A stretch of DNA of 64,000 bases from Solirubrobacteraceae bacterium (GCA_049697735.1 JBAVWI010000020.1:7174-71173); one strand, 5' to 3'; shown: positions 36,368-61,853, counted from the stretch's first letter. A program made the numbers and translations. The notes: generated by a model not told the origin, from the sequence alone.

Positions 36368-36419
36368 AGGGGGCAAGTGTGACCGCAAACCAAGCCCGAC
36401 ACAGAACCTAGCCTACCAC

Positions 36420-36431
36420 CCAACCGGTTGG
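36420..36431. promoter_or_regulatory. operator-like palindrome CCAACCGGTTGG (site 1)
   Basis: Perfect 12-bp palindrome in the divergent gap between the PPDK-like gene and hyuA. Flanks are CCTACCAC...TAGG. Confidence 0.6.
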
Positions 36432-36511
36432 TAGGGAGCCTCGGAACCAGCCTGCAGCTACGGTTCCGGCTTGAGTTGACATGGAAGATCACCGCCTCTA
36501 GGATGAGCCTC

Positions 36512-36523
36512 CCAACTGGTTGG
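36512..36523. promoter_or_regulatory. operator-like palindrome CCAACTGGTTGG (site 2)
   Basis: Same gap, about 75 nt before GTG 36599. Followed by TTGGG. Confidence 0.6.
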
Positions 36524-36598
36524 TTGGGACTCGAGTGAGAGGGATTAGGCACGCGCTCTCGTAGGGCCTGCCGCTGACCCGAAGGGAGCTGGTTAAGC

Positions 36599-38704
36599 GT
36601 GAGCTACATCTGCGGCATCGATGTCGGCGGGACGTTCACGGACTGCGTGGTGGTCGGCGCAGACGGCACGGTGACGGTGGCGAAGTCCTCGTCGACTCCG
36701 GGGGACTTCTCGCGAGGCATTTTTGACGTGCTCGGCGTCGCCGCCGGGCAGCTCGGCCTCGAGGAGAGCGAGTTTTTGGGAAGCATCACGGCCCTGTTTC
36801 ACGGCACGACGGTGGCCACCAACGCGATGGTGGAGCGCAAGGGCGTCGACTCGGCGATGTTGGTCACCCGAGGTCACCGCGATGTCCTCAGCATCATGCG
36901 AGGCGCTGGCCGCACCGCAGGGCTCGCGCCTGAGCAATACCTGCAGGTCTCGGTGGCCAACAAGCCGGCGCCGATCGTGCCGCGCAAGCGGATCGGTGAG
37001 ATTGCCGAACGAGTCGACGCCAAGGGTCAGGTGGTGGTCGAGCTCGACGAGGAGTCGGCGCGAGCGACGGTGCGCCACCTGCTCGGGCTCGGAGTACGGA
37101 GCATCGGCGTCTGCCTATTGTGGTCCTTTCAGAACGCGGGCCACGAGGAACGCCTCAAGGAGATCATCCTCGAAGAGGCCGGCGGTGACACGTACGTCAC
37201 GCTGTCCTCGGAGCTGATCCCCAAGTGGGGGGAGTACGAGCGAGCCGTCGGGACGGCCATCAATGGCTACATCGGGCCGCTCGTGCGCGATTACCTCTCG
37301 GATCTCCGCGAGCGTGGCACCGAGCTGGGGATGAACGGCCGAATCCTCATCATGCAGGCCAGTGGAGGCCTGGCCGAGGCGGCACGCATTGTCGACGTGG
37401 CGGTTCAGACCATCGGCTCCGGCCCGGTGGCTGGGGTCACCGGCTCTAGCCGGTTCGGGGACGAGATGGGAACGCCGAACGTGATCTGCACCGACATGGG
37501 CGGTACCACGTTTGACGTCGGGCTGGTCGTCGACGGGCGGCCGGTCCGCCGAGCGTCGAGCATCGTCAGCCAGTATGAGTACGCCCTGCCCCAGGTCGAC
37601 GTGCGGTCGGTCGGCGCCGGGGGCGGGAGCATCGCCTGGATCGATTCCGTGTCCAAAGCCCTGCGTGTCGGTCCCCAGAGCGCGGGCGCCGCACCGGGGC
37701 CGGCCGCCTACGGACAGGGTGGCCTCGAGCCGACCGTCACCGACGCCGACCTGATCCTCGGCTACATCGACCCCAACAGCTTCCTGGGCGGCAACATGAA
37801 GCTCGATCGTCAACTGGCCGAGGCGGCCCTGGACCGGGTCGCCGAGCCTCTCGGCCTCGGCCGGTCGGAGCTGGCGGCCGGGATTGTGCAGATCGTCGAG
37901 ACTCAGATGGCCGAGCTGATCCGCCAGATGACAGTGCAGAGCGGGTATGACCCGCGCGACTTCGTCGTCTATGCCTACGGTGGTGCCGGCCCCACCCACG
38001 GGGTCGGCTACGCGGCCGAACTCGGTGCGCGCTCGGTGGTGGTTCCCCTGCTCGATCTGGGGGCGGTCTGGTCGGCCTTCGGGGTGGCGGCCAGCGACCT
38101 GGTCGAGCTTGTGGAGTCAACCGACATCATGCGCCAGCCGTTCGATCTCGAGCGGCTGAACAACTCGCTGAGCGGGTTGGAGAGCACCGCGCGCGAGCGG
38201 CTGGTGTCCCAGGGGGTGGCCGCCGAGGACGTCGAGGTGACCCGTCGGGCGTTCCTGCGCTACACGGCCCAGATCCACGAGGTCGATGTCCTGGTCGGGT
38301 CCGGCCCGGTGGACGAAGCTTCGGCGGCACAGCTGGTGGCGGAGTTTCAGGAGCGCTACGAGCAGCTGTTCGGCAAGGGCTCAGGGTTCGCCGGGGCCGG
38401 CATCGAGCTGGTCAGCGTCAGCGCCGAGGGTCGCGGACGCCTTGAGTCCCAGCGCCAGGTCGCCGAGCACGTGACGCACCGGGCCACCGGTACCGGGCAG
38501 ACAAGAGAGCTCGCGGCCCGGGAGGTCTACTGGCCGCGAGAAGGAGTGCGCATGACCACCAGCGTGTTCGACGGTGCATCACTTCGCCCCGGGGACCAGA
38601 TGTCAGGCCCCGCAATCGCCGAGCTTCCGCACACGACGATCGTCATCCCGCCCGGCTACACGGCCGTGATCGACGAATTCGGCGATTGCGTGATCGAGCT
38701 CTGA
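36599..38704 (+). CDS. hydantoinase A / oxoprolinase / acetone-carboxylase-beta family ATPase subunit
   Basis: 701 aa. MSYICGIDVGGTFTD, TTVATNAMVERKG, MGGTTFDVGLV, GPQSAGAAPGPAAYGQGG, and other actin-fold hydantoinase_A signatures. Confidence 0.9.
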   Translation: MSYICGIDVGGTFTDCVVVGADGTVTVAKSSSTPGDFSRGIFDVLGVAAGQLGLEESEFLGSITALFHGTTVATNAMVERKGVDSAMLVTRGHRDVLSIMRGAGRTAGLAPEQYLQVSVANKPAPIVPRKRIGEIAERVDAKGQVVVELDEESARATVRHLLGLGVRSIGVCLLWSFQNAGHEERLKEIILEEAGGDTYVTLSSELIPKWGEYERAVGTAINGYIGPLVRDYLSDLRERGTELGMNGRILIMQASGGLAEAARIVDVAVQTIGSGPVAGVTGSSRFGDEMGTPNVICTDMGGTTFDVGLVVDGRPVRRASSIVSQYEYALPQVDVRSVGAGGGSIAWIDSVSKALRVGPQSAGAAPGPAAYGQGGLEPTVTDADLILGYIDPNSFLGGNMKLDRQLAEAALDRVAEPLGLGRSELAAGIVQIVETQMAELIRQMTVQSGYDPRDFVVYAYGGAGPTHGVGYAAELGARSVVVPLLDLGAVWSAFGVAASDLVELVESTDIMRQPFDLERLNNSLSGLESTARERLVSQGVAAEDVEVTRRAFLRYTAQIHEVDVLVGSGPVDEASAAQLVAEFQERYEQLFGKGSGFAGAGIELVSVSAEGRGRLESQRQVAEHVTHRATGTGQTRELAAREVYWPREGVRMTTSVFDGASLRPGDQMSGPAIAELPHTTIVIPPGYTAVIDEFGDCVIEL

Positions 38705-38728
38705 GCGCCGAGACCAACCAGGAGAGAC

Positions 38729-41062
38729 ATGGCCACACTTGAGAACAACGTAATCGCCGAGAACTGGAACGAGGCCAGCGACGGTTACCTGGCGCCGCAA
38801 CGGATCAGCACCACGGCACCCCTGCACACGGAGTCCAAGCTCGATATTGACCCCATCTCCTATGAGGTCATCCGTCACGCGCTCTGGAACATCAACATCG
38901 AGCACGGCGAGACGATCCTCAAGGTTTCCGGATCGCCGATCGCGCTCTACTCGCATGACTTCAACCCGGCGATCACCGCCGAGGACGGAGAGCTCGTGTA
39001 CTTCGGGCAGTACGTGCAGCATCTCTGCGCGGGTGCGCCGGCCGGAGTGAAGTGGACGCTCGAGTACCGCGATGTCAACCCCGGCATTGCCGACGGCGAC
39101 ATCTTCCTGACCAACGATCCGTGGATCTCCTGTAACCATCAGCAGGACATCGTTCTGCTCAAGCCAGTCTTCTGGGAGGGAGCGATCTTCGCCTGGGTGA
39201 CGAGCACGCTGCACCACTACGACCTGGGCGGGACGACGCCAGGGAGCTTCTGCCCCGATGCCAAGGACATCTACTACGAGCCGTCCCCAATCCCGCCGAT
39301 CAAGATCGTCGAGGGCAACGTCATCAGGATCGACGTCGAGGACATGGTCCTGCGCAAGTCCCGGCTGCCCGACCTGGTCAAGCTCGATCTACACGCGATG
39401 ATCGCGGGCTGCAACGTCGCCGAGCGGCGCATGCACGGGTTGTGCGAGAAGTACGAACCCGCGGTCGTCAAGGGGGCAATGAAGAAGATCAGTGACAACT
39501 CCGAGCAGGTCTTCCTGGCTCGGCTTCGCGATATCCCGGACGGCGTCTGGCGCGACCGCACCTACCTGGAGATGGCCCTGCCTGGCGACCGCGAGATCTA
39601 CAAGTTCGAGCTCTCGGTGACCAAGGAAGGTGACACGCTGACCTTCCGCAACGAGGGCACCGATCCCCAGTACGGCGCGATCAACAGCACTATCGTGGGC
39701 TTCCGCGGCTCGATCATGACCGGCCTGATCGGCGCCTTCCTCCACGATCAGCTGTTCGCTTACGGCGGCCCCATGCGCCACATCAAGTTCGAGCCGACGC
39801 CGGGCACGCTGACGTGCGCCCGCTATCCCGCCGCCGTCACCTGTGCCCCGAACACCGGCATGCTTGTCGTACTCTCGCAGGCCAACGCGGTGATCTCCAA
39901 GATGATCTCCTGCTCGGCTAACGAGGCGGATCGCCGCGAAGCGACAGCGAAGTTCGGCGGCAGCCAGTTCCCGATTCTCTCGCTGGCCGGGACCGACCAG
40001 TGGGGTGGCCAGTTCGCCACCGTGCTGTTGGACCCGATGATGTCCGGGATCGGCGCCTTCAGCCACCGCGATGGCGTCTCCACCGGCGGGTACCCATTTG
40101 ACCCCAAGGCGATCGCCCCCAATGTCGAGTTCAACGAACAGTTCTTTCCCATCCTCTACCTCCATCGGACCGAGCTGGCGGACTCGGCCGGACCCGGTCG
40201 CTTCCGGGGCGGCGCCAGCGCTTCGTGGGCGGTGGTCCCCCATGGGACCGAGGAGATCAACCTGGCCACCTCCGCCTCGGGCGTGTGGGTGCCGACCGGC
40301 AACGGCATGTGGGGTGGCGGTACCGCCACCACCAACCGCTTCCGTATCAAGTCGAACACGGACCTCGAGGAGCGCTTCGCGGCCCGCGAGGTCCCGCAGT
40401 TCGACGAGCTGGCGGGCGACACGCGTTACATCGAGCCCAAGGAGACGGGAACCGTCCAGCATCGCGGTGACGTGCTCGAGATCCAGTATCCGGCCGCCGG
40501 CGGATGGGGCGATCCGTTTGAACGTGAGCCGAGCCGGGTTGCGGCCGACGTCGAGGAAGGATTCGTGAGCGTGGAGGGCGCGCGCCGCGACTATGGCGTG
40601 GTGGTGACCGACGACGGCGACGAGGTGAGCGTGGATGCAACCGAGACCGAGCGGGTCCGGTTGGCGGAGACCGATCGCCGGCGCAGGGAAGCGCGGCCCG
40701 CGGTGCCCAGTGAGAACACACGGGTCCCCCGCGGCTCGGGTCGGATGGGACTCGGCGACGCGGTCACCTTGGAGCTCGCCGACGGACACGCCACCTTCCG
40801 CTGCGCGCACTGTGACGCTGAGCTGGGGGTCGACCCGCCTGACTACAAGACGGGCGCCGTGGTCATGGATCGTCCGCTGACCGAGCGCGTTCCCGGCTTT
40901 GTGCCCGGCGACAGCGAAGCCGCCAATCAGCTCGTACATCGCGAGCACTACTGCCCGTCCTGCCTGGTCAGACTCGACGCCGAGGTGGTCCGACAGGACG
41001 AGGCTTCGCTCGTCGACGTCGAGATCTGGGCTCCGCCGGCCTCGATCTGGGAGCAGGCTTGA
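38729..41062 (+). CDS. hydantoinase B / oxoprolinase / acetone-carboxylase-alpha family subunit with C-terminal four-Cys (zinc-ribbon-like) extension
   Basis: 777 aa. DPISYEVIRHALWNI, DGDIFLTNDPW...HQQDI, GPGRFRGG, GGWGDPFEREPSRVAADVEEGFVSVEGARRDYGVV. A ~110-aa tail follows, with CAHC (from 40802) and YCPSC (Cys from 40952). Confidence 0.88.
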   Translation: MATLENNVIAENWNEASDGYLAPQRISTTAPLHTESKLDIDPISYEVIRHALWNINIEHGETILKVSGSPIALYSHDFNPAITAEDGELVYFGQYVQHLCAGAPAGVKWTLEYRDVNPGIADGDIFLTNDPWISCNHQQDIVLLKPVFWEGAIFAWVTSTLHHYDLGGTTPGSFCPDAKDIYYEPSPIPPIKIVEGNVIRIDVEDMVLRKSRLPDLVKLDLHAMIAGCNVAERRMHGLCEKYEPAVVKGAMKKISDNSEQVFLARLRDIPDGVWRDRTYLEMALPGDREIYKFELSVTKEGDTLTFRNEGTDPQYGAINSTIVGFRGSIMTGLIGAFLHDQLFAYGGPMRHIKFEPTPGTLTCARYPAAVTCAPNTGMLVVLSQANAVISKMISCSANEADRREATAKFGGSQFPILSLAGTDQWGGQFATVLLDPMMSGIGAFSHRDGVSTGGYPFDPKAIAPNVEFNEQFFPILYLHRTELADSAGPGRFRGGASASWAVVPHGTEEINLATSASGVWVPTGNGMWGGGTATTNRFRIKSNTDLEERFAAREVPQFDELAGDTRYIEPKETGTVQHRGDVLEIQYPAAGGWGDPFEREPSRVAADVEEGFVSVEGARRDYGVVVTDDGDEVSVDATETERVRLAETDRRRREARPAVPSENTRVPRGSGRMGLGDAVTLELADGHATFRCAHCDAELGVDPPDYKTGAVVMDRPLTERVPGFVPGDSEAANQLVHREHYCPSCLVRLDAEVVRQDEASLVDVEIWAPPASIWEQA

Positions 41063-41073
41063 GCGCCTCTCCG

Positions 41074-41406
41074 ATGAGCATCGTTGGACGCGGCACGTTG
41101 GTGTCCGGCGATGGGTTCGAGGGTCGCCTCGTTCGCGCCGACGACGTTGACGCCGTACTCGATCTCCTCGGCCAGGACCTGGGCGAGGCGGTTCTGCTCA
41201 CTGACCAGGCTTCGGCGACAGCGGTGGCACCGCTGTTGACCAGCCTGGCCGGCGTGGTCTGCACCCAGGGTGGTCACACCGCCCACCTGGCGATCGTCTC
41301 GCGGGCCCTGGGCCTGCCGTGTCTGATGGGGGCCATCTTTGAAGCCGAGGCGCAGCCCGGGGCGCGAGTTCGGGTCACCGATGACGGGGCGGTCCACTCC
41401 GGATGA
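41074..41406 (+). CDS. free-standing PEP-utilizer mobile ('swivel') phosphohistidine domain protein
   Basis: 110 aa (115 if TTG 41059, which overlaps the hyuB stop). GRLVRADDVD...AVLLTDQASATAVAPLLTSLAGVVCTQGGHTAHLAIVSRALGLPCLMGA aligns by eye with the GGxT(S/A)HAAI(V/L)xRxxGxP swivel motif, including the His. Confidence 0.75.
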   Translation: MSIVGRGTLVSGDGFEGRLVRADDVDAVLDLLGQDLGEAVLLTDQASATAVAPLLTSLAGVVCTQGGHTAHLAIVSRALGLPCLMGAIFEAEAQPGARVRVTDDGAVHSG

Positions 41407-42539
41407 GGGCGCTGCTGGATCCACAGGCTGTCATCGCGCGCTTTGGAGCGGACCTGTCCGGAACGATCCGGCGGGAGCGACGCACGGCGATGAAGTCTCC
41501 GCTGTTCGATCTTCCCGGACGCTCCTCGCTCGGGTTCGCGGTCACCTATGCGGTGGCTCCCGAGTTCATCGAGCGCCTCGAGACCGAGCTGACCGGGGCC
41601 GAGGCCGGCGCCCTGATGCGAGAGCCGCTGTCGCGTCCTTACTTCCTGCAACTTTTCATTCTCGTCGAGGGATACCTAGCCGGCCGCGAGCAGATCCTGC
41701 TTGACACCGGCGGAGCGTTTCGGACCCCGGCGGAGGCCGGTAGTGATCGGGAACGGACCGCGCGTGTGGTCTCGTGGTTCGCCGAGGCTTGCGAGGCCTA
41801 TCGCCAGGATGGGGAGCTGTTCCCCGGTGACGATGTACTTGGCCAGCCGGTGCTCTCCGAGCCGCAGCTCCAGAGTCTGCTTGAGGCGTCGGCGGTCGCG
41901 GCCTCGGACGCCGAGCGCGTGCGCAAGGCATTCGGACAATTGGAGCTGTATGCCATCACGCTGCACGGGGAGCAGCGCGACGGCATCTTTGACCACGGTC
42001 CCTACCGGGACAAGGTCCGCACCCTGGCCGTCCACGAGGTCAACGATCTCGACAACGACTATCTGCCATGGGCTGACGCGGAGACTCAGCTCGGCGTCGA
42101 TGCGGTCGGTGTTGTGCGGGCTTACCCCCCGGCGGTGGCGATGCGCTTTGACCTGTTCGGGACCATGAGTCCGGACCCGGTCACGGCCACCGGCCGGGAT
42201 CTCGCGCTGTGCAAACGCGACCGGGACGGTCTCGCGCCGCTAGACCTCAACGAGCTCGAAGCCCTGGCCGAGCGCGCGCAGCTGGCCACCACGATCCTGT
42301 ATCGCCGGTTCGCGGGCTGGGATCCCGCCTACCGCATCCGGTACGGGGCCGGTCAATTCCTCAACCATCTCGTGCCCTTTGCCCGCCTGGCGAGTAGCCC
42401 CGGACTCGAGTCCTGGCTTACTGCAGCCGGCGACGCGGCCGCCGAGGCTGAGATGCCCCGGCTTCAGCCTGGACAGCCGCGATCGATCTGGTCTCATTTC
42501 GCCACCACCGATCGCATCTTTACGCCGGTGGCCGAGTGA
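41403..42539 (+). CDS. hypothetical protein, no recognised domain
   Basis: 378-aa ORF. ATGA overlap with the swivel-domain stop, and its own stop overlaps the next start (TGATG). Good coding bias by eye. Confidence 0.6.
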   Translation: MRALLDPQAVIARFGADLSGTIRRERRTAMKSPLFDLPGRSSLGFAVTYAVAPEFIERLETELTGAEAGALMREPLSRPYFLQLFILVEGYLAGREQILLDTGGAFRTPAEAGSDRERTARVVSWFAEACEAYRQDGELFPGDDVLGQPVLSEPQLQSLLEASAVAASDAERVRKAFGQLELYAITLHGEQRDGIFDHGPYRDKVRTLAVHEVNDLDNDYLPWADAETQLGVDAVGVVRAYPPAVAMRFDLFGTMSPDPVTATGRDLALCKRDRDGLAPLDLNELEALAERAQLATTILYRRFAGWDPAYRIRYGAGQFLNHLVPFARLASSPGLESWLTAAGDAAAEAEMPRLQPGQPRSIWSHFATTDRIFTPVAE

Positions 42540-44629
42540 TGTCAGCGGCCACGGTCGAGTCCACCGCGGGCCTGCGCGCGCTACTCGAGCCTGGCGGCGT
42601 GGTCGTCATCGGGGCGTCAAACCGCGAGAGTAACCTGGGACTGCGCTTTACCCGGGGGCTCCAGCGCCACGGCTATGCGGGACCGGTTTCGGTGGTCAAC
42701 CGGCGCGCCGAGCCCGTTGACGGCATCCCGGGATACGAGTCACTGGAGCAGGTGCCGGGTACCGTCGACTTGGCGGTGATCGCGGTGAACGCGGGTGCGG
42801 TCGCCGAGGCCATCGATGCCTGCGGGGCGCGCGGGATTCGCGCCGCGATCGTCTTCACCTCCGGGTTCGGGGAAGTCGGCGGCGAGGGGATGATTCGCCA
42901 ACGGGAGATCGCCGCCCGAGCCCGGGTGGCCGGGGTCCGTCTGATGGGGCCGAACTGTGTGGGTTTTGTCAACGTTCCCAAACGCGTGTGCGCGATCGCC
43001 TCGGGCTTTGCCTTTCGCTCCGAGCTGCTTGCCGGGAGCTTGTCGGTCATCACCCAGAGCGGGGGCGTGGCCGGCCTGATCGGCGAGCGGGCGCAGGACG
43101 TCGGCATCGGGCTGTCGCACGTCATCTCGACCGGTAATGAGGCCGACGTCACCGCCGGAGAGCTGGTCGACTACCTCGTGGCCGAGGGGTCCACCCGGTC
43201 GCTGGCCTTGTACCTCGAGGCCGTCCGTGAGCCCCAGCGGCTCGGCGAGGCGCTCGTCCGGGCTCGGACGGCGGGCATCGGGGTGGCCATCTTCAAGGCC
43301 GGGGCGGGTGAGCGCACGGCGGCTGCCGCGGCTGCGCATACCGGGTCGGTGGTCGGTGATGACGCCGGCTTCGAGGCCTTCTGCCGGCAGGTCGGGGCTG
43401 TGCGGGTGCACGACCTTGACCATCTCTTTCTGGTCGCGCCGGTGATCGCTGCCCTGGACACTGCTGGGTCTCGGGTTGGGGTGCTGTCGATCTCCGGCGG
43501 GGCCGCGGTGGCCGTCGCCGACGCCTGTGAGCGCTGCGGCTTGGAGCTGCCGCCACTCTCCGAGGTAACCCAAGCGGGCGTTGGCGAGATGGTGCCGGGT
43601 TTTGCCTCCCGGCAGAACCCGGTCGACATCAGCGGGACCTTTGTCGTCGACATGCCCCAGTTCCAGCGCTCGTTGGAGATCCTCACCGGTGCCCCTGAAT
43701 TCGATGCCGTCGTCCTCGTCCAGACCGTCCATCCCGAGTCATTGGCGAATCGAGTCGCCGAGGTCATCATCGGCGGGGCCGACCCGACTCGGACCTCGAT
43801 CATGTGGGCGGCCGGGAACCAGACGCGCGCCGCCCGGCGCCGACTGCGCGAGGCCGGCTTCGGCGTTAGCGAAAGCCCGACAGCGTGCGCCATGGCCGTA
43901 GCCGCCGCCACCACGTCGCGGCGGCTCGAACCACCCGCCCTTGCTTGGCCCGAGTCTGGTGGCGCTACACCCGGGTGCGCCTCCGAGGCCCTCGAGTTGC
44001 TGGCCGCCCATTCAGTCCCGGTGGCACCGATGGAAGTCGTGACCACTGCCGCTGAGGCGAGCGCAGCGGCCGAGCGGTTGGGCTTTCCCGTTGTCGCCAA
44101 GGCTGATTTGAGCTCACTGGCGCACAAGAGCGAGCACGGTGGGGTCAAGCTCGGATTACGAGACGGCCGCGCGGTGCAAGCCGCCTTCGCCGAGCTCGAC
44201 GCTCGAGGCCTGGCCGGGGACGGAGTGCTGGTTCAGAAGGCGGTTTTGGGTAGCCGGGAACTCCTGGTTACAGCGGTTGTCGATCCCGTGTTCGGCCTCG
44301 CCCTGGCAGTCGGCTTCGGTGGGGTCCTGACCGAGGCCATCGGCCGGGGTGCGCTGCTGCTCCCGCCGCTCACCCCCAGCGGTCTTGCCGCGGCGCTGGA
44401 CAGTGCCGGGCTGACTCGCCTCGTGGGGTCATTCCGAGGGGCGGCGGCGATCGATCTCGGCCAGTTGCTGGCCCTCGGCGGGGGGCTGCTCGAGGCAGCC
44501 GCCCAGCTTGGCGGCCTGCGCCATCTGGAGCTCAACCCGGTGATCGTGGGCGATGACGGAAGCGTGTGCGCGGTCGATGCGCTGATCGATACCAACGTCG
44601 AAATGAGGCCCGATGCTCCAAGCGGTTGA
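42539..44629 (+). CDS. ADP-forming acyl-CoA synthetase (fused CoA-binding / succinyl-CoA-synthetase-like / ATP-grasp; acetate--CoA ligase ADP-forming family)
   Basis: VVVIGASNRESNLG, VNRRAEPVDGIPGY, DLAVIAV, MGPNCVGFVN, AAAAHTGSVVGDD (phosphohistidine loop), plus a C-terminal ATP-grasp (GFPVVAKADL...GGVKLGL). Confidence 0.85.
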   Translation: MSAATVESTAGLRALLEPGGVVVIGASNRESNLGLRFTRGLQRHGYAGPVSVVNRRAEPVDGIPGYESLEQVPGTVDLAVIAVNAGAVAEAIDACGARGIRAAIVFTSGFGEVGGEGMIRQREIAARARVAGVRLMGPNCVGFVNVPKRVCAIASGFAFRSELLAGSLSVITQSGGVAGLIGERAQDVGIGLSHVISTGNEADVTAGELVDYLVAEGSTRSLALYLEAVREPQRLGEALVRARTAGIGVAIFKAGAGERTAAAAAAHTGSVVGDDAGFEAFCRQVGAVRVHDLDHLFLVAPVIAALDTAGSRVGVLSISGGAAVAVADACERCGLELPPLSEVTQAGVGEMVPGFASRQNPVDISGTFVVDMPQFQRSLEILTGAPEFDAVVLVQTVHPESLANRVAEVIIGGADPTRTSIMWAAGNQTRAARRRLREAGFGVSESPTACAMAVAAATTSRRLEPPALAWPESGGATPGCASEALELLAAHSVPVAPMEVVTTAAEASAAAERLGFPVVAKADLSSLAHKSEHGGVKLGLRDGRAVQAAFAELDARGLAGDGVLVQKAVLGSRELLVTAVVDPVFGLALAVGFGGVLTEAIGRGALLLPPLTPSGLAAALDSAGLTRLVGSFRGAAAIDLGQLLALGGGLLEAAAQLGGLRHLELNPVIVGDDGSVCAVDALIDTNVEMRPDAPSG

Positions 44630-45656: not shown

Positions 45657-45664
45657 TCAGGGCC

Positions 45665-46258: not shown

Positions 46259-46304
46259 ACGTGTGGTGACGACTCCCGCGCGAGGAACCTCTTGTGCTAA
46301 GCTA

Positions 46305-46320
46305 CCAAACGGTCGGTTGG
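46305..46320. promoter_or_regulatory. operator-like site, wide-spaced variant CCAAA-CGGTCG-GTTGG (site 3)
   Basis: In the 123-bp gap upstream of the VOC-FAD-CoAT-TetR operon. Embedded in CTACCAAACGGTCGGTTGGGTAAC. Confidence 0.45.
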
Positions 46321-54909: not shown

Positions 54910-55703
54910 GCCCACCGGATGAGGCCTTCAGCCGCGACGAGCTGCTCGCCGCCTACGTGGCCGGCCAGATCGAGAACGGCGACCGCCTCTTCGTCGGCGC
55001 CAACCTGCCGGTCCCACGGGCCGGCAATCTGCTCGCTCACCTCACCCACGGACCCGACATCAAGGTTTCCGTGGGGATGGTGAGCACCAACCTGCTCAAC
55101 GAGCCGATCCTCGAGCCGTTGAAGTTCTCCACCGACTATCGCATGGCCCGCTTCGCCGAGGCGGTTGTGGTCCACAACGACATCTTCGACGCTCCGCGCA
55201 AGGTCTCCGACCTGTTTTTCGTGGGCGGAATCCAGATCGACCGCTACGGCAATACGAACCTGATCGGGTTGGGCGAGGACTACGCACGGCTGCGCTTTCG
55301 CGGGCCCGGCACACTCGGCACCGCGTCAATGGCCTACTACGCCAAGCGCTATTACATCTACGCCCAGCAGCACTCCCCGCGCGTCTTCGTCGAGCGATGC
55401 GACTTTGTGTCCGTGTTCGGCCATGGCGAGGGCGCGGATCACCGGGCGCGGCTGGGCCTTGATCGCTTCAATCGCGGCCCGACCTCGGTCATCACCCCGC
55501 TGGCCATCCTCGACTTCGAGACGCCCGACCATCGCATGCGGATCCAGAGCGTTCATCCGGGAGTCAGCGTCGATGACGTGCATGCCGCCACCGGGTTCGA
55601 GCTCGAAGTCCCGCCGGATGTTGCGGTCACGCCGGAGCCGACCGCGGAGCAGATCGCGCTGCTGCGCGAGCGCATCGACGTGGAGGGTCTCCTGCGCAGG
55701 TAA
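54903..55703 (+). CDS. CoA-transferase-like subunit B (IpdB-like), pair 3
   Basis: RDELLAAYVAGQIENGDRLFVGANL...VGGIQIDRYGNTNLIGLG...ITPLAILDFETPDHRMRIQSVHPG. No SENG motif at the expected position. Confidence 0.78.
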   Translation: MVSPPDEAFSRDELLAAYVAGQIENGDRLFVGANLPVPRAGNLLAHLTHGPDIKVSVGMVSTNLLNEPILEPLKFSTDYRMARFAEAVVVHNDIFDAPRKVSDLFFVGGIQIDRYGNTNLIGLGEDYARLRFRGPGTLGTASMAYYAKRYYIYAQQHSPRVFVERCDFVSVFGHGEGADHRARLGLDRFNRGPTSVITPLAILDFETPDHRMRIQSVHPGVSVDDVHAATGFELEVPPDVAVTPEPTAEQIALLRERIDVEGLLRR

Positions 55704-55793
55704 GGATGCGGCGGTCCGGCGGGTGGCGGCCATCCCCGAGGTTCTCGGGCCGCCCGCTTGCACGGCGCCGGAACCCATGGTATGTTTCCTCAA

Positions 55794-55805
55794 CCATCCG
55801 GTTGG
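55794..55805. promoter_or_regulatory. operator-like site CCATC-CG-GTTGG (site 5, one mismatch)
   Basis: Context is TCAACCATCCGGTTGGTTGGGAGGG, 20 nt before ATG 55825 of the ABC permease. It shares the GGTTGGTTG right arm with sites 2, 4, 6 and 7. Confidence 0.5.
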
Positions 55806-55824
55806 TTGGGAGGGAAGAGGAGAG

Positions 55825-56901
55825 ATGGAATCTTCTGGAGAGCAGACGGTGGGCCTGGACCCGCAGCCGGCCGGATTGGCTGGCGGCGGAGCCCCGACGG
55901 CGGCCGCGCCTTCGCCGCCTCCACGGACCGACGACCGGCTCCCCGGGGAGAGCCCCTGGCGCCGGCGCGTCACTCGGCTCGGCGATCGCTACGGGGTCAT
56001 TCTCACCTTCATCGCGATCATCGTCGTGTTCTCGATCCTGGACCCGTCGGGCTTCCCGACCTGGCGCAACCTCCAGACGATCCTAACCCAGACCGGGACG
56101 GTGATTCTGCTGGCCATCGGGCTCACCTTTGTGCTCGCGGCCGGAGAGTTCGACCTCTCGTTCCCCTACGCGTTCGGACTGGTCAGCGGTGTACTGGTGA
56201 TCGCCTTGACCAAGTGGCACATGGGCACGTTCGAGGCGGTGGCGATCGGTCTGGCGTGTGGTGTGCTCACCGGAGTCATCAACGGGTTGCTGGTCGCCAC
56301 CCGGCGGGCCTCGTCCTTCATCCTGACCCTTGCCGCCGGCTCGGCCTACACCGGTCTCATGTACGCCGTTGCCGGTCAGGCGCCGATCATCAACGGCATT
56401 CCCAACAACTACGTCAACATCGCCAACCGGTCGGTCCTCGGCTTTAGCACTGTGGTCGTGCTGGCGCTGGTCACGGCGATCCTCGCCGCGGTGGTCCTCC
56501 GGGCCACGGTCTTCGGCCGCCACGTCCAGGCCACCGGCTCCAACGCCGAGGCGTCGGCCATCGCCGGCGTCCGCGTCAACCGTGTCCGGATCGGCGCCTT
56601 CGCCGTGTTGGGGTTGTTCGTTGCCGCGGCGGCGATCATCGATACCTCGACCTCGGCTGCCTTCTATCCGAGCGCCGGACAGGGCTACTTCTTGCCGCCT
56701 TTCGTCGCCGCCTTCGTAGGCACGTCCGTCCTGGGCCGGGGGCGGTTCAATGTGCTCGGGACGGTCATCGGTGCTTTGTTCATCGACACCCTCCAGGTCG
56801 GTCTGATCCAGCAGAACGCGCCCTCCTGGGTGATCTACGTGGTGCAGGGAGTCGTGCTGGCCATGGCGGTCATGGTCACTGCCCAGAAGCGCCGTACCTG
56901 A
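55825..56901 (+). CDS. ABC transporter permease, CUT2 (ribose/xylose-type) family
   Basis: 358 aa from ATG 55825 (GGGAGGGAAGAGGAG ribosome-binding site). Multi-pass membrane protein: ...LLAIGLTFVLAAGEFDLSFPY...GFSTVVVLALV... The listed 498-aa ORF overlaps the preceding gene. Confidence 0.82.
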   Translation: MESSGEQTVGLDPQPAGLAGGGAPTAAAPSPPPRTDDRLPGESPWRRRVTRLGDRYGVILTFIAIIVVFSILDPSGFPTWRNLQTILTQTGTVILLAIGLTFVLAAGEFDLSFPYAFGLVSGVLVIALTKWHMGTFEAVAIGLACGVLTGVINGLLVATRRASSFILTLAAGSAYTGLMYAVAGQAPIINGIPNNYVNIANRSVLGFSTVVVLALVTAILAAVVLRATVFGRHVQATGSNAEASAIAGVRVNRVRIGAFAVLGLFVAAAAIIDTSTSAAFYPSAGQGYFLPPFVAAFVGTSVLGRGRFNVLGTVIGALFIDTLQVGLIQQNAPSWVIYVVQGVVLAMAVMVTAQKRRT

Positions 56902-56917
56902 GCGACTGCAGAGGGCT

Positions 56918-58453
56918 GTGACCGCTACACCCACCGCCTCGAGCGACCCCGGATCTGCCGACACGCCTGGGCGCGTTCCCGTGCTGAGCACGGTGGGCGT
57001 GTTTAAGAGCTACGACGAGGTCCAGGCGCTGCGCGGGGTGGACTTCTCCCTCTACCCCGGCGAGGTCGTCGGCCTGGTGGGTGCCAACGGAGCCGGAAAG
57101 TCGACGCTGATCAGGATCCTGACCGGACTCGTCGCGCCCGATGCCGGCGAGGTGATGGCCGAAGGCACACCGATGCGACCGACCATCCAGGCAGCTCGGG
57201 CCGCGGGCGTCACCGCCGTGCATCAGGAGCTCAATCTGGTGCCCGCTGCGACCGTGGCCGAGAACGTCTTGCTCTGGAATCTGCCCCGCCGGGCCGGAAT
57301 GGTCAGCCGCAGGGAGATGCGCCGCCGGGCCGGCGAGGTGGTGGCCCAGCTCGGCGTCGAGCTTCCGCTCGACATGCCGGCGGCGGAGCTCACCGCGGTC
57401 CAGCAGCGACTCGTGATGGTGGCGGCCGCGCTCTCCCAGAATGCCAAGGTGCTGATCCTCGATGAGCCGACCGCGTCGCTTCCCGCAGACGAGGCCCAGC
57501 ACGTGCTCAAGGTGGCACGGGAGCTGCGTCGCCTAGGCAAGTCGGTCGTGTTCGTCTCGCACCGTCTCGACGAGGTCGTGGCGGTGGTCGACCGTGCCGT
57601 GGTCATGCGCGACGGGCGCGTGGTCCGAGAGCTCGCGCCGGGTGAGGTCGACATCGAGACGATGATGGAGCTGATCGGAGCCAAACGGGTGGCCGCGCTC
57701 GATCGCCGGCTCAGACATCCGATCAGCAACCGCACCGAAGTCATTCTCTCCGCCCGCGGCGTATACGGAAGCCGCGTCCGCGAGCTCGAACTCGACGTCC
57801 GCGGAGGTGAGATCCTCGGCGTCGCCGGTCTGGTCGGAGCCGGCCGCAGCGAGCTCCTGCGCCTGCTGGCCGGAGTGCAGCGCCACCGAGCGGGCGAGCT
57901 CCTCCTACGAGGCAAGTCGTGGAGTCGCGACGCAGCTCGGGGCGAGGTCGGATATGTGGGGGAGCGGCGTGGTGACCATCTCTTTGCCGACTTCGACGTG
58001 AGTTCGAACGTCAGCCTGCCCAGCCTGGGGCGCTTCAAGCATTGGCGCTGCCTACTGGACGCAAAGCAGGAGCACAACTCGGTGGCCGATGTCCTCGGGC
58101 GAACCGGCGTCAAGGGGGGCCCACGTGACACGATGGGATCCCTCTCGGGAGGCAACAAGCAGAAGGTCCTCCTCGCGCGCTGGTTGCTGGTCGAGTCCAA
58201 GGTCCTGATCCTGGACGAGCCGACCGCCGGGGTCGATGTCGGGGCTCGGGCTGAATTGCACGCTCTGCTGCGAGAGATCGCCGATGCCGGCGGAGCCGTC
58301 GTGGTGGCGATCTCCGACCCCAAGGAGCTCCTTGCGCTGTGTAACCGGGTGATCGTCCTCAGAGAAGGTCGGCTCACCTTGGATACGGTGGCGCCGTTTC
58401 ACGAGGGCGAGATCCTGGCCGCGTCGTACGCTGATCTCTCGGTCACGGCCTGA
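56918..58453 (+). CDS. sugar-type ABC transporter ATP-binding protein (duplicated ATPase, RbsA-like)
   Basis: 511 aa. Walker A GANGAGKST, a second cassette LSGGNKQKVLLARWL / ILDEPTAGVD, and a first-cassette signature degenerated to AVQQRLVMV. Confidence 0.85.
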   Translation: MTATPTASSDPGSADTPGRVPVLSTVGVFKSYDEVQALRGVDFSLYPGEVVGLVGANGAGKSTLIRILTGLVAPDAGEVMAEGTPMRPTIQAARAAGVTAVHQELNLVPAATVAENVLLWNLPRRAGMVSRREMRRRAGEVVAQLGVELPLDMPAAELTAVQQRLVMVAAALSQNAKVLILDEPTASLPADEAQHVLKVARELRRLGKSVVFVSHRLDEVVAVVDRAVVMRDGRVVRELAPGEVDIETMMELIGAKRVAALDRRLRHPISNRTEVILSARGVYGSRVRELELDVRGGEILGVAGLVGAGRSELLRLLAGVQRHRAGELLLRGKSWSRDAARGEVGYVGERRGDHLFADFDVSSNVSLPSLGRFKHWRCLLDAKQEHNSVADVLGRTGVKGGPRDTMGSLSGGNKQKVLLARWLLVESKVLILDEPTAGVDVGARAELHALLREIADAGGAVVVAISDPKELLALCNRVIVLREGRLTLDTVAPFHEGEILAASYADLSVTA

Positions 58454-58458
58454 CCGCC

Positions 58459-59496
58459 GTGTTCGTCGAGACCGACGATTACTTCGCCCACCAGCTCGTG
58501 GAGACCCACGAGCGTGTCCTCCTCAATGATCCGAGCTGGGCGGAGCGCGTGTTCTTCACCGTGTCTCATCCCGACCGCTTCGCCCTCGACGTCGGCCTCT
58601 CCATGTACCCCAACAACGACACCGTCGAGGCCTACGCGGTCGGTCTTCTCCCCGGCGGTCGTCAGTTCTCGATGCGGGCCGCGCGCGACCTGTCCGCCGG
58701 ACGGCGCCTGTTCGCCGGGCCCATCGAGCTCGAAGTGCTCGAGCCGCAGCGCCGCTGGCGGCTGCTCTGCGCCGCCAATCCGAGCGGCATCGAGTTCGAT
58801 TTGGAGTACGTGGCCCGGGCCGCGCCGTACGAGACGAGGATGCCGACCCTGCATCGGCGCGGACGGCTGATGTACGACAACGTGATCGCCTTCCAACCGG
58901 CGCGTTACCACGGTGAGGTGACCCTGGACGGCACGCGGATTGCCATCGATGGGGTCCCCGGCCACCGCGACCGTAGCTGGGGCGTGCGGGCCAGCGGCGA
59001 GGGGCGGATGAGACGAGGACTTGTCACCACGGTGTTCGCCGAGTTCGACGAGTTCTCGATTCTGGCCATGATGTATGAGCGCTTCAACGGCACCCCGGTC
59101 AAGTACGCCGGCGTGGTCAACCACGATGGGGGAGACGGGGTGGCGATCGAGCGCTTTGAACACGACCTGGTCTTCGATCACGATTCCCGGCAGCTGCAAG
59201 AGGCGCGCTTCTCCTTTGGCGACGCCCAGGGACGGACCTGGAAGGTCGAGGCGCAGCCCCGCATGCGCCTTCATCTGGCGGGTGGCGGCTACACCTCCGA
59301 CGAGCACCGGCGCGGTCAGCTCGGAGTCCCCTTCTGGACTGAGCGCTGGAACGTCGACGATCCAACTCAGTTGCGCAAGATCGACCAGCTGAATGACAAC
59401 ATCAGTCACCTGCGCTGCGGAGCTCTGACAGGTCACGGCGTGGTCGAGACCTTGCTCGGCGAGCACGATCGGTATCGCGTTGCTCCCGCTGAATGA
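58459..59496 (+). CDS. conserved hypothetical protein (paralogue of 44613-45656)
   Basis: 345 aa. MFVETDDYFAHQLVETHE... and IDGVPGHRDRSWGVR parallel the other copy. Confidence 0.7.
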   Translation: MFVETDDYFAHQLVETHERVLLNDPSWAERVFFTVSHPDRFALDVGLSMYPNNDTVEAYAVGLLPGGRQFSMRAARDLSAGRRLFAGPIELEVLEPQRRWRLLCAANPSGIEFDLEYVARAAPYETRMPTLHRRGRLMYDNVIAFQPARYHGEVTLDGTRIAIDGVPGHRDRSWGVRASGEGRMRRGLVTTVFAEFDEFSILAMMYERFNGTPVKYAGVVNHDGGDGVAIERFEHDLVFDHDSRQLQEARFSFGDAQGRTWKVEAQPRMRLHLAGGGYTSDEHRRGQLGVPFWTERWNVDDPTQLRKIDQLNDNISHLRCGALTGHGVVETLLGEHDRYRVAPAE

Positions 59497-60433
59497 CGAG
59501 CCCTACCTGGAGATAGCGCTCGGAGCGGCGGCCCGCCGGTTGGGGGTGCCACGCGGGGTGCTGACGGCGCGCGCCCTCAGCCGTGGGGTCACACACGAGA
59601 CGCTGCTCGTCCTCCGGGAATCGGAGCCGGTGGCTGTGTTCCGGCTGGCGCCCCCGCGCCTCGAGATCCTGCCCAGGCATACGCCGAGCGAGGAAGGCGT
59701 CCTACTGCAGCGACTCGGCAAGACGCCACTGCCGGTGCCCGAGGTCCTGATCAGTGATCCAGACGGGCGAGAGCTGGGGCGCCCCGGCCTGCTGCTCAGC
59801 TATGCGCCTGGTGAGAGCACCCTGACCTGGGAAAGCCTTCGCGCGCGCTGCGGCCCGGGCATCGCCGAGCATACGCTCGATCTGCTCTGCCAGATGCACG
59901 CGGTCCCGACCGACGGGTGGCCCGACGCGGCGGCCGCCGACAGCCACGCACAGCGTGATCTCGATGGCGCCCGAGCGCTGGCGGCGCGGGCCGGAGCCTC
60001 GGCGCCGGCCGAGCTCATGTCCGCACTGGCCAGTCTCGAGTTGGCTGCGCCCGCGCCCAGCGGACCGGCCTGCATCGTTCACGGCGACTACCGACCCGCC
60101 AACCTCATGGCCAGAGACGGCCAGATCACCGGCATCCTGGATTGGGAGATGACGACAACCGGAGATCCCGCCTGCGATCTGGGCATCGCGTCCATGCAGC
60201 CATGGGGGACTTGGTGGGAAGACGAGGAGTTGCTGAGCCGGTACGCGGCCGGGAGCGCGACCGAGGTTCCTGTGGTCGCCTTGCTCTGGTGGCGCTGCCT
60301 CGGTTACGCGAAGGTAGTGGCATTTCTGGCCGCCCGCGTCCGCGATGGCTGGGGCGGCGGTCCGGGGCTGCGCAAATGGGTGGACGGCATGGCCGACGAG
60401 CGCTCCGCCTGGCAGCTGGCACTCCGCGGCTGA
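59480..60433 (+). CDS. phosphotransferase (aminoglycoside-phosphotransferase/choline-kinase fold) family protein
   Basis: IVHGDYRPANLMARDGQITGILDWEMTTTGDP (catalytic HxDxxxxN and DWE motifs). Confidence 0.82.
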   Translation: MLPLNDEPYLEIALGAAARRLGVPRGVLTARALSRGVTHETLLVLRESEPVAVFRLAPPRLEILPRHTPSEEGVLLQRLGKTPLPVPEVLISDPDGRELGRPGLLLSYAPGESTLTWESLRARCGPGIAEHTLDLLCQMHAVPTDGWPDAAAADSHAQRDLDGARALAARAGASAPAELMSALASLELAAPAPSGPACIVHGDYRPANLMARDGQITGILDWEMTTTGDPACDLGIASMQPWGTWWEDEELLSRYAAGSATEVPVVALLWWRCLGYAKVVAFLAARVRDGWGGGPGLRKWVDGMADERSAWQLALRG

Positions 60434-60460
60434 CCGGCTCGCGATTCGTCCCGACGTAAA

Positions 60461-60490
60461 GAGGGCCGCCGGCTTGCGCCGACGGCCCTC
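60461..60490. terminator. GC hairpin between convergent genes (candidate bidirectional terminator)
   Basis: GAGGGCCGCCGGC-ttgc-GCCGACGGCCCTC: 13-bp stem with one mismatch, preceded by TAAA. Lies between stop 60433 (+) and stop 60523 (-). Confidence 0.55.
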
Positions 60491-60522
60491 GGTGGGCTGC
60501 TCTGCCTATCGACGCAGGAGTG

Positions 60523-61629
60523 TCAAGGCCCGAACTGGCCCTGCGCCCACTTCGCGGCAAACGGAGCTTCGTTCTTGGCGATCGGGAAGAGGAGGGTTCC
60601 CGGCGGGGGCGCATTCTTGGTTGTCACGACCTCGTAGTGCATCGGCTCGGCGACGAGCGGGTTCGGGTTGATGGCCTTATGTGCGGCCAGCTTGCCGGCC
60701 AGCGTGTCCATCGCGACCAGAGCCGTGTGATCGAAGTTGTCCTCGACCAGTGCCCGCACCCCGGTGGTGTTGTCACGGAGCAGGCTGACATTCTGGGGTC
60801 CGGCGAACCAGCTGTAAAGCTTGACCTTGCCGTTGAGGTGGGCCTGCTTGAGCGCAGTCACGGTCGGTCCGATCATGTAGTCGTAAACCAGCCAGATCGC
60901 CTTGATGTTGGGGTGCTTGGCGATGATGTCAGCGGCTATCTGCTGGGTCCCCTTGATCGGATTGGCCAGGTCTCCGTCAGCTTGGGCGACGATCTTCACG
61001 CCCGTGCCCTTCAATACCGCGTCGCGGGCCTGAGAGCGCTGGATGCCCGAGGACAGCTGGGAGATGTTGATCGCGGCGATGTCGCCGCTCCCGCCGAGAT
61101 CCTTGACCATGTACTGCGTGAGCAGCTTGCTCATCAGCGCCTCGTCCTCAGTGATTGTTGCTGCGTAAAGCGGCGAGGACGGAACCCCTCCGCCGATCAC
61201 GATGGCCGGGATGTTGGCCTGCTTGGCCGCCAGCAGCGCCGGGCGGATCAAATTCGCGTCGGTCGAGCCGACGACGATCCCGCTGATGCCCTGGTTGACC
61301 TCGTTGGTCAGCGTTTGGTTGAGCAGGCTGATGTTGCCCTGGGCGTTGGTGTACTTCAGAGTCCAGCCGAGCTGCTTGGCCGCCCACTGCATGGCCTGCA
61401 CGTTGCGGTTGGTCACCTCGTCGACGGCCGCCGGCTCTCCGTAGGCGATCGTGAAGTGCCCGGAACTGACCTTCTTGCTGGCACTGCTGCTGCTGGCGCC
61501 GCTGGCGCCTGACCCGCTACTGCTCGAGCTGTTGCTGCTGCTTCCACAGGCGCCGACCAAAATGGCGACGACTGCGCACAGGGCAGCAACGACCAACAGC
61601 CGGGTACTGCTGCGAAGGCTGTTTCGCAC
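60523..61629 (-). CDS. ABC transporter substrate-binding lipoprotein, CUT2 (periplasmic-binding-protein type I sugar-binding) family
   Basis: Start set to GTG 61629 behind AAAGGAGAGAGAGG. Signal peptide LLVVAALCAVVAILVGAC is followed by a Ser/Gly-rich linker, then a Peripla_BP-like body (IVVGSTDANLIRPALLAAKQANIPAIVIGGG). Confidence 0.82.
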   Translation of the reverse strand: MRNSLRSSTRLLVVAALCAVVAILVGACGSSSNSSSSSGSGASGASSSSASKKVSSGHFTIAYGEPAAVDEVTNRNVQAMQWAAKQLGWTLKYTNAQGNISLLNQTLTNEVNQGISGIVVGSTDANLIRPALLAAKQANIPAIVIGGGVPSSPLYAATITEDEALMSKLLTQYMVKDLGGSGDIAAINISQLSSGIQRSQARDAVLKGTGVKIVAQADGDLANPIKGTQQIAADIIAKHPNIKAIWLVYDYMIGPTVTALKQAHLNGKVKLYSWFAGPQNVSLLRDNTTGVRALVEDNFDHTALVAMDTLAGKLAAHKAINPNPLVAEPMHYEVVTTKNAPPPGTLLFPIAKNEAPFAAKWAQGQFGP

Positions 61630-61682
61630 CCTCTCTCTCCTTTGTCCCGGGCCCGTTCGGACCAATTCCGAAGTCGACCCAA

Positions 61683-61698
61683 CCAACTCGTCGGTTGG
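61683..61698. promoter_or_regulatory. operator-like site, wide-spaced variant CCAAC-TCGTCG-GTTGG (site 6)
   Basis: In the divergent gap between the SBP gene and hyuA2. The spacer resembles that of the site at 46305. Confidence 0.45.
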
Positions 61699-61730
61699 GA
61701 ACGTACCAGCAGTTGACCGCGATTGCTAGA

Positions 61731-61742
61731 CCAACTGGTTGG
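61731..61742. promoter_or_regulatory. operator-like palindrome CCAACTGGTTGG (site 7)
   Basis: Same gap. Context is AGACCAACTGGTTGGTTGAG. Confidence 0.6.
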
Positions 61743-61786
61743 TTGAGAGTTGCGAAGTCATTGAGGGTAGGCTAATGTCGCACCAG

Positions 61787-61798
61787 CCGACCGGTTGG
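61787..61798. promoter_or_regulatory. operator-like site CCGAC-CG-GTTGG (site 8, one mismatch)
   Basis: Same gap, 56 nt before ATG 61854. Followed by TTGGTG. Confidence 0.5.
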
Positions 61799-61853
61799 TT
61801 GGTGAATTTTGGACGGACGGACAGACGGACTTCGAGGGTTGGAAAGGAGGGCG

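Follow-up and report, generated by a model that had tools for sequence, protein, structure and literature searches.

What does a short palindrome, CCAAC-NN-GTTGG, do in the gaps between the genes of a putative catabolic island, and which protein reads it? The question is raised by a 64,000-nucleotide stretch of an uncultured Solirubrobacteraceae bacterium (GCA_049697735.1, JBAVWI010000020.1:7174-71173, part of an 84.5-kb contig; hereafter the window), for which an initial annotation had proposed a local regulon. Judged from comparison of this stretch with related loci, the motif appears to be a real, evolutionarily conserved and previously undescribed operator, defining a regulon, of a TetR repressor resembling KstR2, AibR and PfmR. 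Eight sites probably serve as the operators of a single repressor over the transcription units of the island, the most likely candidate being the TetR encoded in the island itself (50014-50616).

Exact copies of CCAACNNGTTGG occur four times in the window, at 36420, 36512, 51237 and 61731. The mean in 100 dinucleotide-preserving shuffles was 0.06, the same figure that had previously been estimated by eye, and none of the 100 shuffles reached four copies. When one mismatch was allowed in the 12-mer core, 12 matches were found where 1.3 are expected. Seven of them are intergenic, namely the four perfect copies and those at 55794, 61683 and 61787, so that both one-mismatch copies listed in the initial annotation (55794 and 61787) were recovered. 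The other five (29393, 36819, 52069, 56423 and 62077) lie within genes; none of them has the flanking arms, and with a 22-bp matrix all stay under 10 bits. Five such intragenic cores exceed the roughly 1.3 expected for the whole window; they probably reflect a codon or composition effect, although some may be weak internal sites. The copy at 56423 includes the AibR core ACCGGTCGGT.

In total, we count eight operator sites, all of them intergenic and located between 36.4 and 61.9 kb, as had been claimed. By open reading frame (ORF) coordinates, non-coding sequence accounts for only about 0.9 of these 25.5 kb (~3.5%). The eight sites score 24.6-32.4 bits, every other 22-mer in the 64 kb scores at most 11.2 bits, and no operator site was found with the 22-bp matrix in the first part of the window (1-36 kb). 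The only sizeable gap without a site, 60434-60522, separates the convergent APH and SBP genes, where no promoter is expected. The nonamer arm GGTTGGTTG is indeed common to five sites, as first noticed, and has one extra, intragenic copy at 21655 that lacks the left arm.

The extent of the element became apparent when the eight sites were aligned with 5 bp of flank on either side and 27 sites from related loci were added, which gave 35 sites with the consensus cCC(t/a)ACCAAyCGGTTGGTTGrg. The 12-mer on which the initial annotation was built is the core of a longer palindrome of 18-22 bp, with two tandem CAAC/GTTG repeats in each arm; its 18-bp form reads CAACCAAC-CG-GTTGGTTG, with the axis of symmetry between C and G. 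Among the 35 sites, G16, G17 (35/35) and C7 are invariant, T14, T18, G12 and G13 are kept in 32-34, and the outer positions C3, A5, T18 and G20 carry 1.1-1.7 bits, while the spacer written as NN in the 12-mer is mostly CG or TG. Two features previously set apart merge into this common pattern. The copies at 46305 and 61683, described as wide-spaced (CCAAM-N6-GTTGG), do exist, but we rejected them as a separate class because they lie in the same register as the other sites, their cores containing two and one mismatches, respectively, next to a conserved outer arm (61678-61699 reads CCCAACCAAC TC GTCGGTTGGG). The asymmetric right arm is likewise present without being a feature of its own, since in several promoters the upstream outer arm serves as the -10 hexamer (TAnnCT-ACCAA). 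Such fusions of arm and -10, which we refer to as VOC-type, include TAAGCT-ACCAAAC and TAACCT-ACCAAC, as well as TACTCT-ACCAATC in relatives.

The whole palindrome holds two overlapping ACC-N4-GGT units offset by 4 bp, and across 18 bp each of the four triplets (ACC, ACC, GGT, GGT) is conserved. Taken singly, most sites match perfectly in one register only: ACC-N4-GGT is intact in 32 of the 35 sites, 22 in register A and 11 in register B, with one of these in both. The overlapping units suggest that an operator could receive two TetR dimers, which this model would set 4 bp apart on CAACCAACCGGTTGGTTG.

To follow the motif through evolution, we used relatives of the island's TetR with 52-95% identity, found in metagenomes and in two metagenome-assembled genomes (MAGs), from which ten non-redundant loci were taken. 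The matrix was trained on the window's eight sites only and applied with a threshold of ≥17 bits; the scan covered 64 kb from the source genome, or 66 kb once contig L037 is added, and ±10 kb of each related locus. Each of the ten loci yielded 2-4 matches at this threshold. In the nine loci with a TetR of 52-61% identity, which together span 164 kb, 26 matches were found, compared with a mean of 0.03 in Markov-1 simulations and 0 in reversed sequences. In high-GC controls, the maximum score was 11.2 bits in positions 1-36000 of the window and 5.1 bits in a locus of 69% GC. A profile scan of genome contigs with the TetR alignment provided two close relatives and 20 others (≤34% identity) that served as negative controls; 18 loci whose TetR homologues are ≤31% identical contained no match ≥17 bits.

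With the 95%-identical locus counted, 26 of the 27 related-locus sites fall in intergenic gaps called from the gene tables, mostly at orthologous positions upstream of the VOC, LLM and ABC permease genes. The site upstream of VOC is kept at the same position in eight orthologous loci and the one upstream of the ABC permease gene in four. In alignments of the gaps, the motif is the sole invariant block, joined upstream of VOC by the adjoining -10, and the flanks of the orthologous sites have diverged. The phylogenetic footprinting that the initial annotation had suggested as a check was therefore positive, and this conservation at the starts of orthologous operons points to a local regulon operator. 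It also bears on the possibility that the copies descend from a small repeat or mobile element (REP/MITE-like), or are a product of chance or base composition. Many near-identical short intergenic palindromes, together with the slight excess of intragenic one-mismatch cores, are what such an origin would leave behind; however, the likeness stops at ~22 bp, the positions are orthologous and phased to the -10 across TetR orthologues of 52-61% identity, and chance is excluded by the shuffles and simulations. We regard this explanation as extremely improbable.

The phasing was assessed from the positions of -10-like hexamers. A simple scan for sigma-70 promoters found a single canonical example, TTGACA-17-TAGGAT (36476-36504), whose end is 3 bp from the start of site 2; the ABC and SBP/hyuA2 gaps yielded no such promoter, and the phasing was therefore judged from TAnnnT hexamers only. 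Relative to the 22-mer, and over all 35 sites, TAnnnT occurs 11 times at offset -2 and 10 times at offset +26, where we estimate ~0.16 per offset by chance from base composition. At offset -2 (VOC type), the -10 runs into the start of the operator, and the latter spans approximately -9 to +12; at offset +26 (LLM type, to which the PPDK site at 36415 belongs on the minus strand), 4 nt separate the operator from the -10 that follows it, and the operator spans the spacer and the -35. These two fixed registers, over -10/+1 or over -35/spacer, match the predicted geometry of a repressor. As orthologous sites are not independent of one another, we read the phasing as an architecture conserved through sequence divergence.

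The same positions speak to a role at the RNA level, in which the palindromes would form hairpins in 5'-untranslated regions and affect stability, translation or attenuation. Several sites lie downstream of a predicted -10 and would hence be transcribed, and folded as RNA the sites form hairpins of -8 to -15 kcal/mol (z-scores -1.7 to -3.1). These energies are only modestly better than those of shuffled sequences, though, and any palindrome folds; half of the sites (among them the LLM-type ones and that of PPDK) precede the -10 and would not be part of the sense transcript; and at positions 8/15, 10/13 and 4/19 one side varies with no compensating change on the other, which indicates that the sequence is conserved and not the pairing. 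Rfam reported no RNA family in the gaps. A function as RNA is thus very improbable.

The protein that we favor as the reader of these sites is a TetR-family regulator on the plus strand, whose gene closes the operon behind site 3. Its start, previously placed at 49969, is most likely 50014 (Met16 of the long ORF), and the 200-aa product (50014-50616) is identical to the deposited protein. TetR_N (PF00440, E=4.9e-19) was found at residues 24-68 of the long ORF together with TetR_C_24 (PF17932, E=7e-23), and the nearest solved relatives over the full length are 3dcf, 3vpr (E=2.9e-25), AibR (5k7f, E=1e-22) and KstR2 (4w97, E=7.5e-19). In the structure of AibR with DNA, base-specific contacts are made only by Lys47, to the GG, and Tyr51, to the T, of GGT. 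These residues, located in TKAGLYHHIQNK of AibR, align with Lys37 and Tyr41 in TKGTLYHHFPSK of the island's TetR, both of which are invariant among 26 TetR orthologues, and GGT/ACC triplets are the best-conserved part of the motif. By homology with AibR, Lys37 and Tyr41 would read the GGT triplets. Moreover, a TetR orthologue of ≥52% identity is present in all ten non-redundant related loci that bear the motif, despite rearrangement of the gene order, and sites adjoin tetR itself in five loci (L001, L027, L029, L031 and L033). Three of these, L001, L027 and L031, have a rearranged or different context and keep the TetR along with 2-3 strong sites, one of which, in L031, occupies the gap just ahead of tetR. 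The proposal that TetR is the likely binder is thereby strengthened, and we consider it probable that the motif is its operator.

A second candidate for the binder is the 197-aa winged-helix protein encoded at 45665-46258, in which case the TetR would have another target. Its AlphaFold2 model (pLDDT 93.7) contains an N-terminal, MarR-like winged helix-turn-helix, mycobacterial homologues are annotated as MarR, and its gene lies immediately upstream of site 3 in eight syntenic loci. Yet no homologue of it occurs within ±10 kb in L001, L027 and L031, all of which have their strong sites and the TetR. Its Foldseek matches are weak (E≥7e-3) and cover only ~70 residues, its residues have no link to GGT-type half-sites, whereas the TetR carries the Lys/Tyr pair of AibR, and some homologues are annotated as PPDK, so that it may be an accessory of the kinase system. 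The comparative data favor the TetR, and we consider the winged-helix protein an unlikely reader of the motif. The protein belongs to no Pfam or NCBIfam family and contains a novel long helical domain with an invariant SYHxxWFELHE motif. Its homologues have ~204 aa in Mycobacterium, and among those from JGI some carry the name 'pyruvate, orthophosphate dikinase'. The winged-helix protein of the island may work with the PPDK-like kinase as its accessory, or act as a second regulator.

Alternatively, the binder could be encoded elsewhere, as a TetR paralogue or a member of another family, leaving the island's TetR as a passenger or a second layer of control. The visible sequence is limited to the scanned regions given above, and a 27-bit site in one further locus (L035), 9 kb from a TetR of 40% identity, implies that related TetRs may share the motif. 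Against this stand the company that the motif keeps with close TetR orthologues in all ten relatives, with sites adjoining tetR in half of them, and the fit of the TetR's DNA-reading residues to the motif. We hold a distant binder to be decidedly unlikely.

Several observations weigh against the island's TetR as the reader of all eight operators, or limit how far this assignment reaches. The source is a MAG of an uncultured organism. That the winged-helix protein binds DNA is plausible; it co-occurs in 8 of 11 loci, and where it is missing within ±10 kb it may still be encoded elsewhere in the genome. The orthologous sites lack phylogenetic independence. The best-conserved triplets are the outer ones (ACC 5-7 and GGT 16-18), whose N8 spacing is unlike that of AibR and makes the exact binding register uncertain. 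Finally, AibR binds DNA only together with its effector, so that release by a ligand may not be assumed from homology. TetR binding, the identity of the effector, the direction of its control and the stoichiometry are what we infer from comparative evidence.

With the TetR as the binder, the following mechanism can be proposed. One repressor, the product of 50014-50616, would control seven to eight transcription units through the eight operators. Its sites would cover either -10 to ~+12 or the -35 and spacer, and the bound repressor would in this position exclude RNA polymerase. As tetR is the last gene of an operon that is itself controlled by a site, the repressor would also act on its own synthesis; the negative autoregulation envisaged in the initial annotation, via the site upstream of the VOC-FAD-CoAT-TetR operon, thus holds up as a prediction. 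An inducer, an intermediate of an acyl-CoA pathway, would probably release the repressor. That the effector is probably such an acyl-CoA intermediate is suggested by relatives of the TetR that respond to CoA thioesters and by the CoA-transferase and CoA-ligase genes of the island.

A broader reading joins three further proposals, and as a whole we put it forward tentatively, as a possibility rather than an expectation. In its first part, two cooperative TetR dimers, possibly with the winged-helix protein, would occupy the two overlapping AibR-type ACC-N4-GGT sites at their 4-bp offset. In the second, the operators would control a conserved, undescribed catabolic pathway of Thermoleophilia-type Actinomycetota, in which an ATP-dependent ketone carboxylase or lactamase of the HyuAB type and the PPDK-like kinase would feed 3-oxoacid CoA-transferases. 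In the third, the N2- or N6-spaced CCAAC/GTTGG operators of related TetRs (in L035, L036 and L003) would make up a broader family, so far unrecognised, that extends to steroid-like clusters and Chloroflexota.

We then examined the sites and the units they adjoin, with genes annotated from ORF calls, Pfam and NCBIfam. Site 1 (ACCACCCAACCGGTTGGTAGGG, 36415-36436) and site 2 (GCCTCCCAACTGGTTGGTTGGG, 36507-36528) share the divergent gap between the PPDK-like gene and hyuA1. On the minus strand, site 1 ends 4 nt before the -10-like TAGGTT (36405-36410), a spacing from which it probably controls the gene of the PPDK-like kinase (34223-36388, minus strand), which contains PPDK_N and a PEP-utilizers mobile domain and for which Pfam reported no PEP/pyruvate-binding domain. 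Site 2 begins 3 bp past the -10 of the strong TTGACA-17-TAGGAT promoter and, being directly past this -10, covers the start-site region of the hyuA1 operon (36599-46258, plus strand). This operon encodes the caprolactamase/acetophenone-carboxylase-like pair hyuA1-hyuB1, a PEP-mobile protein, unk378, an NDP-forming acyl-CoA synthetase, an Rv3169-family protein and the winged-helix protein. The first 4 nt of site 3 (AGCTACCAAACGGTCGGTTGGG, 46300-46321) overlap the -10-like TAAGCT (46298-46303) of the next unit (46382-50616, plus strand), which consists of VOC, an FAD amine-oxidase-like protein, CoA-transferase pair 1 and the TetR.

Site 4 (ACCTACCAACTGGTTGGTTGAT, 51232-51253) occupies the 21-bp divergent gap between unk200 and LLM and ends 4 nt before the -10-like TACGAT (51258-51263). 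On its plus-strand side lies the unit 51249-55703, with an F420-dependent LLM oxidoreductase of the Rv3520c family followed by CoA-transferase pairs 2 and 3. The start candidates of the LLM gene, TTG 51249 and ATG 51252, fall within site 4, and an in-frame GTG at 51270 is found 7 nt past the conserved TACGAT. From this arrangement, the LLM mRNA may be leaderless and start at GTG 51270; the same layout of site, 4 nt and TAnnnT is also seen in eight orthologous loci. On the minus strand, divergent from LLM, unk200 (50625-51227, 200 aa) is a possible further regulated unit, for which no promoter of its own was identified. Its earlier label, 'ATC hydrolase', is not significant (Pfam E=0.13). We also considered unk200 as the regulator and rejected it, as many loci bearing the motif are without it and the protein lacks a DNA-binding domain.

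Site 5 (CTCAACCATCCGGTTGGTTGGG, 55789-55810) is flanked by the -10-like TATGTT (55781-55786) on one side and by the ABC permease gene's ribosome-binding site on the other. This gene is the first of a unit (55825-60433, plus strand) that continues with an ABC ATPase, an Rv3169-family protein and an APH-family kinase. The remaining three sites are located in the gap between SBP and hyuA2, which measures 224 bp given the SBP start at GTG 61629. Site 6 (CCCAACCAACTCGTCGGTTGGG, 61678-61699), read on the minus strand, directly follows the -10-like TACGTT (61700-61705) and, from this position, would cover the start-site region of the gene for SBP, a sugar-type substrate-binding lipoprotein (60523-61629, minus strand). 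Site 7 (CTAGACCAACTGGTTGGTTGAG, 61726-61747) is central in the gap, between the two divergent promoters, and would overlap the -35 regions of both. Site 8 (ACCAGCCGACCGGTTGGTTGGT, 61782-61803), 3-8 nt downstream of the -10-like TAGGCT/TAATGT (61768-61778), covers the start-site region of hyuA2 (61854-64000, plus strand), a gene that ends at ~64010, past the end of the window. It is followed by a second large gene of at least 619 aa without a Pfam record, and the ~1.9 kb visible beyond the window (L037) contain no new gap.

The island is syntenic in at least eight MAG or metagenome contigs of Solirubrobacterales-like Actinomycetota, including L002, L023, L025, L029, L032, L033 and L034. Their common content comprises two HyuA/HyuB sets, three CoA_trans A/B pairs, a CUT2-type ABC importer and pairs of APH with an Rv3169-family protein, together with the PPDK-like kinase, the PEP-mobile protein, unk378, the NDP-forming acyl-CoA synthetase, the Rv3520c-family F420 LLM, VOC and the FAD oxidase. 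As a guess, the island could encode a conserved catabolic pathway in which 3-oxoacid CoA-transferases activate a ketone or lactam that has first been carboxylated or opened. The island encodes two paralogues of the Rv3169 family (DUF7064), one within 58459-60433, where it is paired with the APH-family kinase, and one at 44613-45656. Rv3168/Rv3169 of M. tuberculosis form a similar pair. Outside the island, a regulator of the AraC type (DUF6597 and HTH_18) is encoded upstream of it at 30766-31467, with no copy of the motif nearby, and a tRNA gene (3388-3460) is the only Rfam match in the window.

Beyond the close relatives, three loci contain similar palindromes near more distant TetR homologues. 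The 27-bit match in L035 (CTCGACCAACCGGTCGGTAGAG, 18950-18971) lies upstream of an acyl-CoA dehydrogenase gene and beside glycine-reductase genes, and the motif may accordingly be common to more distant TetR paralogues. In L036, a TetR homologue of 39% identity is found in a steroid-like cluster with a KshA-type Rieske protein, two P450s, a thiolase and two APH/DUF7064 pairs. The intergenic gaps of this cluster (at 390, 1740, 7594 and 9719) hold palindromes of the CCAAC-N6-GTTGG type, for example CCCAACTATACGGTTGG, which points to a related family of operators whose spacer is wider. In a MAG of Ardenticatena (Chloroflexota; L003, 6055-6080), the variant palindrome ACCAAACAATCGTTTGATTGGT is located ~30 bp upstream of the gene for a TetR homologue of 34% identity, suggesting autoregulation with a related operator outside the Actinomycetota.

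The operators and their units mark the functional boundaries of a conserved and uncharacterised catabolic island of more than 27 kb in an uncultured soil lineage, the Solirubrobacteraceae. An acyl-CoA effector, once found, would give a lead to the island's substrate, and the pair of repressor and operator might find use as a component of biosensors. Searching the literature for the motif strings returned no relevant match. According to NCBIfam, the best named models for the TetR lie far below their cut-offs (26 bits for the KstR model, with a cut-off of 280), and no match at the level of KstR2 was obtained. The TetR is thus not an orthologue of KstR2, AibR, PaaR or PfmR, although the operators of these four share the style of the one described here; how it resembles and departs from each of them can be set out in turn.

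AibR of Myxococcus xanthus (5k7f/5k7z) depends on isovaleryl-CoA and binds DNA only with this ligand, a co-repressor logic for a biosynthetic operon. Its contact residues Ser35, Met36, Thr46, Lys47, Tyr51, His53 and Lys57 are identical at the aligned positions of the island's TetR. Its operator ACCTACCGGTCGGTAGGT is an 18-bp palindrome whose contacted triplets form ACC-N4-GGT, and the core ACCGGT(C/T)GGT is contained in many of the sites described here. AibR differs in having one such pair of triplets where the sites of the island have two, overlapping with a 4-bp offset, and the opposite logic, that of release, would be expected for a catabolic island.

The recognition helix of 3vpr reads LSKAALYHHFGSK. 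This structure, given in the database only as 'TetR family', is presumably that of PfmR (TTHB023). PfmR of Thermus thermophilus binds TACCGACCGNTNGGTN or a 16-mer of the CTGACCG type derived by REPSA, and PaaR of the same organism (TTHA0973) prefers AACnAACGTTnGTT; its effector is reported to be phenylacetyl-CoA. Both regulators bind within promoters, some of which are bidirectional or contain two sites. PaaR shares with the island's operator the tandem AAC repeats at a pitch of 4 bp. Both systems differ from ours in half-site sequence, spacing, pathway (fatty acid and phenylacetate) and phylum, and in having scattered regulons instead of one island.

Operators of the QacR type, bound by two dimers, are similar in their footprint, if the 18-22 bp of the sites studied here indeed consist of two overlapping dimer-sized sites, although the 4-bp offset may or may not sterically admit two dimers. 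The CprB operator is also bound by two dimers.

A close parallel in style is KstR2, the regulator of the lower cholesterol pathway in Mycobacterium and Rhodococcus, as the initial annotation had sensed when it compared the motif with the KstR/KstR2 boxes. The KstR2 motif is AnCAAGnnCTTGnT, with actual sites of the form (T/A)ACCAAGnnCTTG such as CTACCAAGCACTTGCT and CAACCAAGCGCTTGCT. Like it, the operator of the island contains a 14-bp palindrome with N2 spacing, the core being (T/A)ACCAACnnGTTGGT, in the same frame and with five of the six half-site bases in agreement. Both systems have a repressor of the TetR_N and TetR_C_24 type, few sites around the regulator gene and mostly in divergent gaps, and a small, local regulon in which CoA-transferase-type and acyl-CoA enzymes are abundant. 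KstR and KstR2 both respond to CoA thioesters. A steroid regulon of this kind is made up of ring-degradation genes such as ipdAB, fadD3, echA20 and fadE30-33; the window contains CoA_trans pairs and the Rv3520c-family LLM, and no steroid-ring genes, and no KshA, Hsa, acyl-CoA dehydrogenase or thiolase, were seen in its annotation. IpdAB belongs to the CoA_trans family. The differences lie in the lineage (Solirubrobacteraceae and not Mycobacteriales), in the outer CAAC-CAAC repeat, which is conserved here, and in the innermost base of the half-site, which is swapped: the 35 sites carry an AAC-nn-GTT core, not the AAG-nn-CTT of KstR2 operators, and in the recognition helix Lys37 takes the place of the Ser of KstR2. 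A TetR repressor with palindromes around its own catabolic cluster would be textbook in kind and not surprising, while this operator and its regulon appear to be previously undescribed; within a KstR2-like specificity, it is the half-site base (AAC/GTT or AAG/CTT) and the helix residue (Lys or Ser) that would set the two systems apart.

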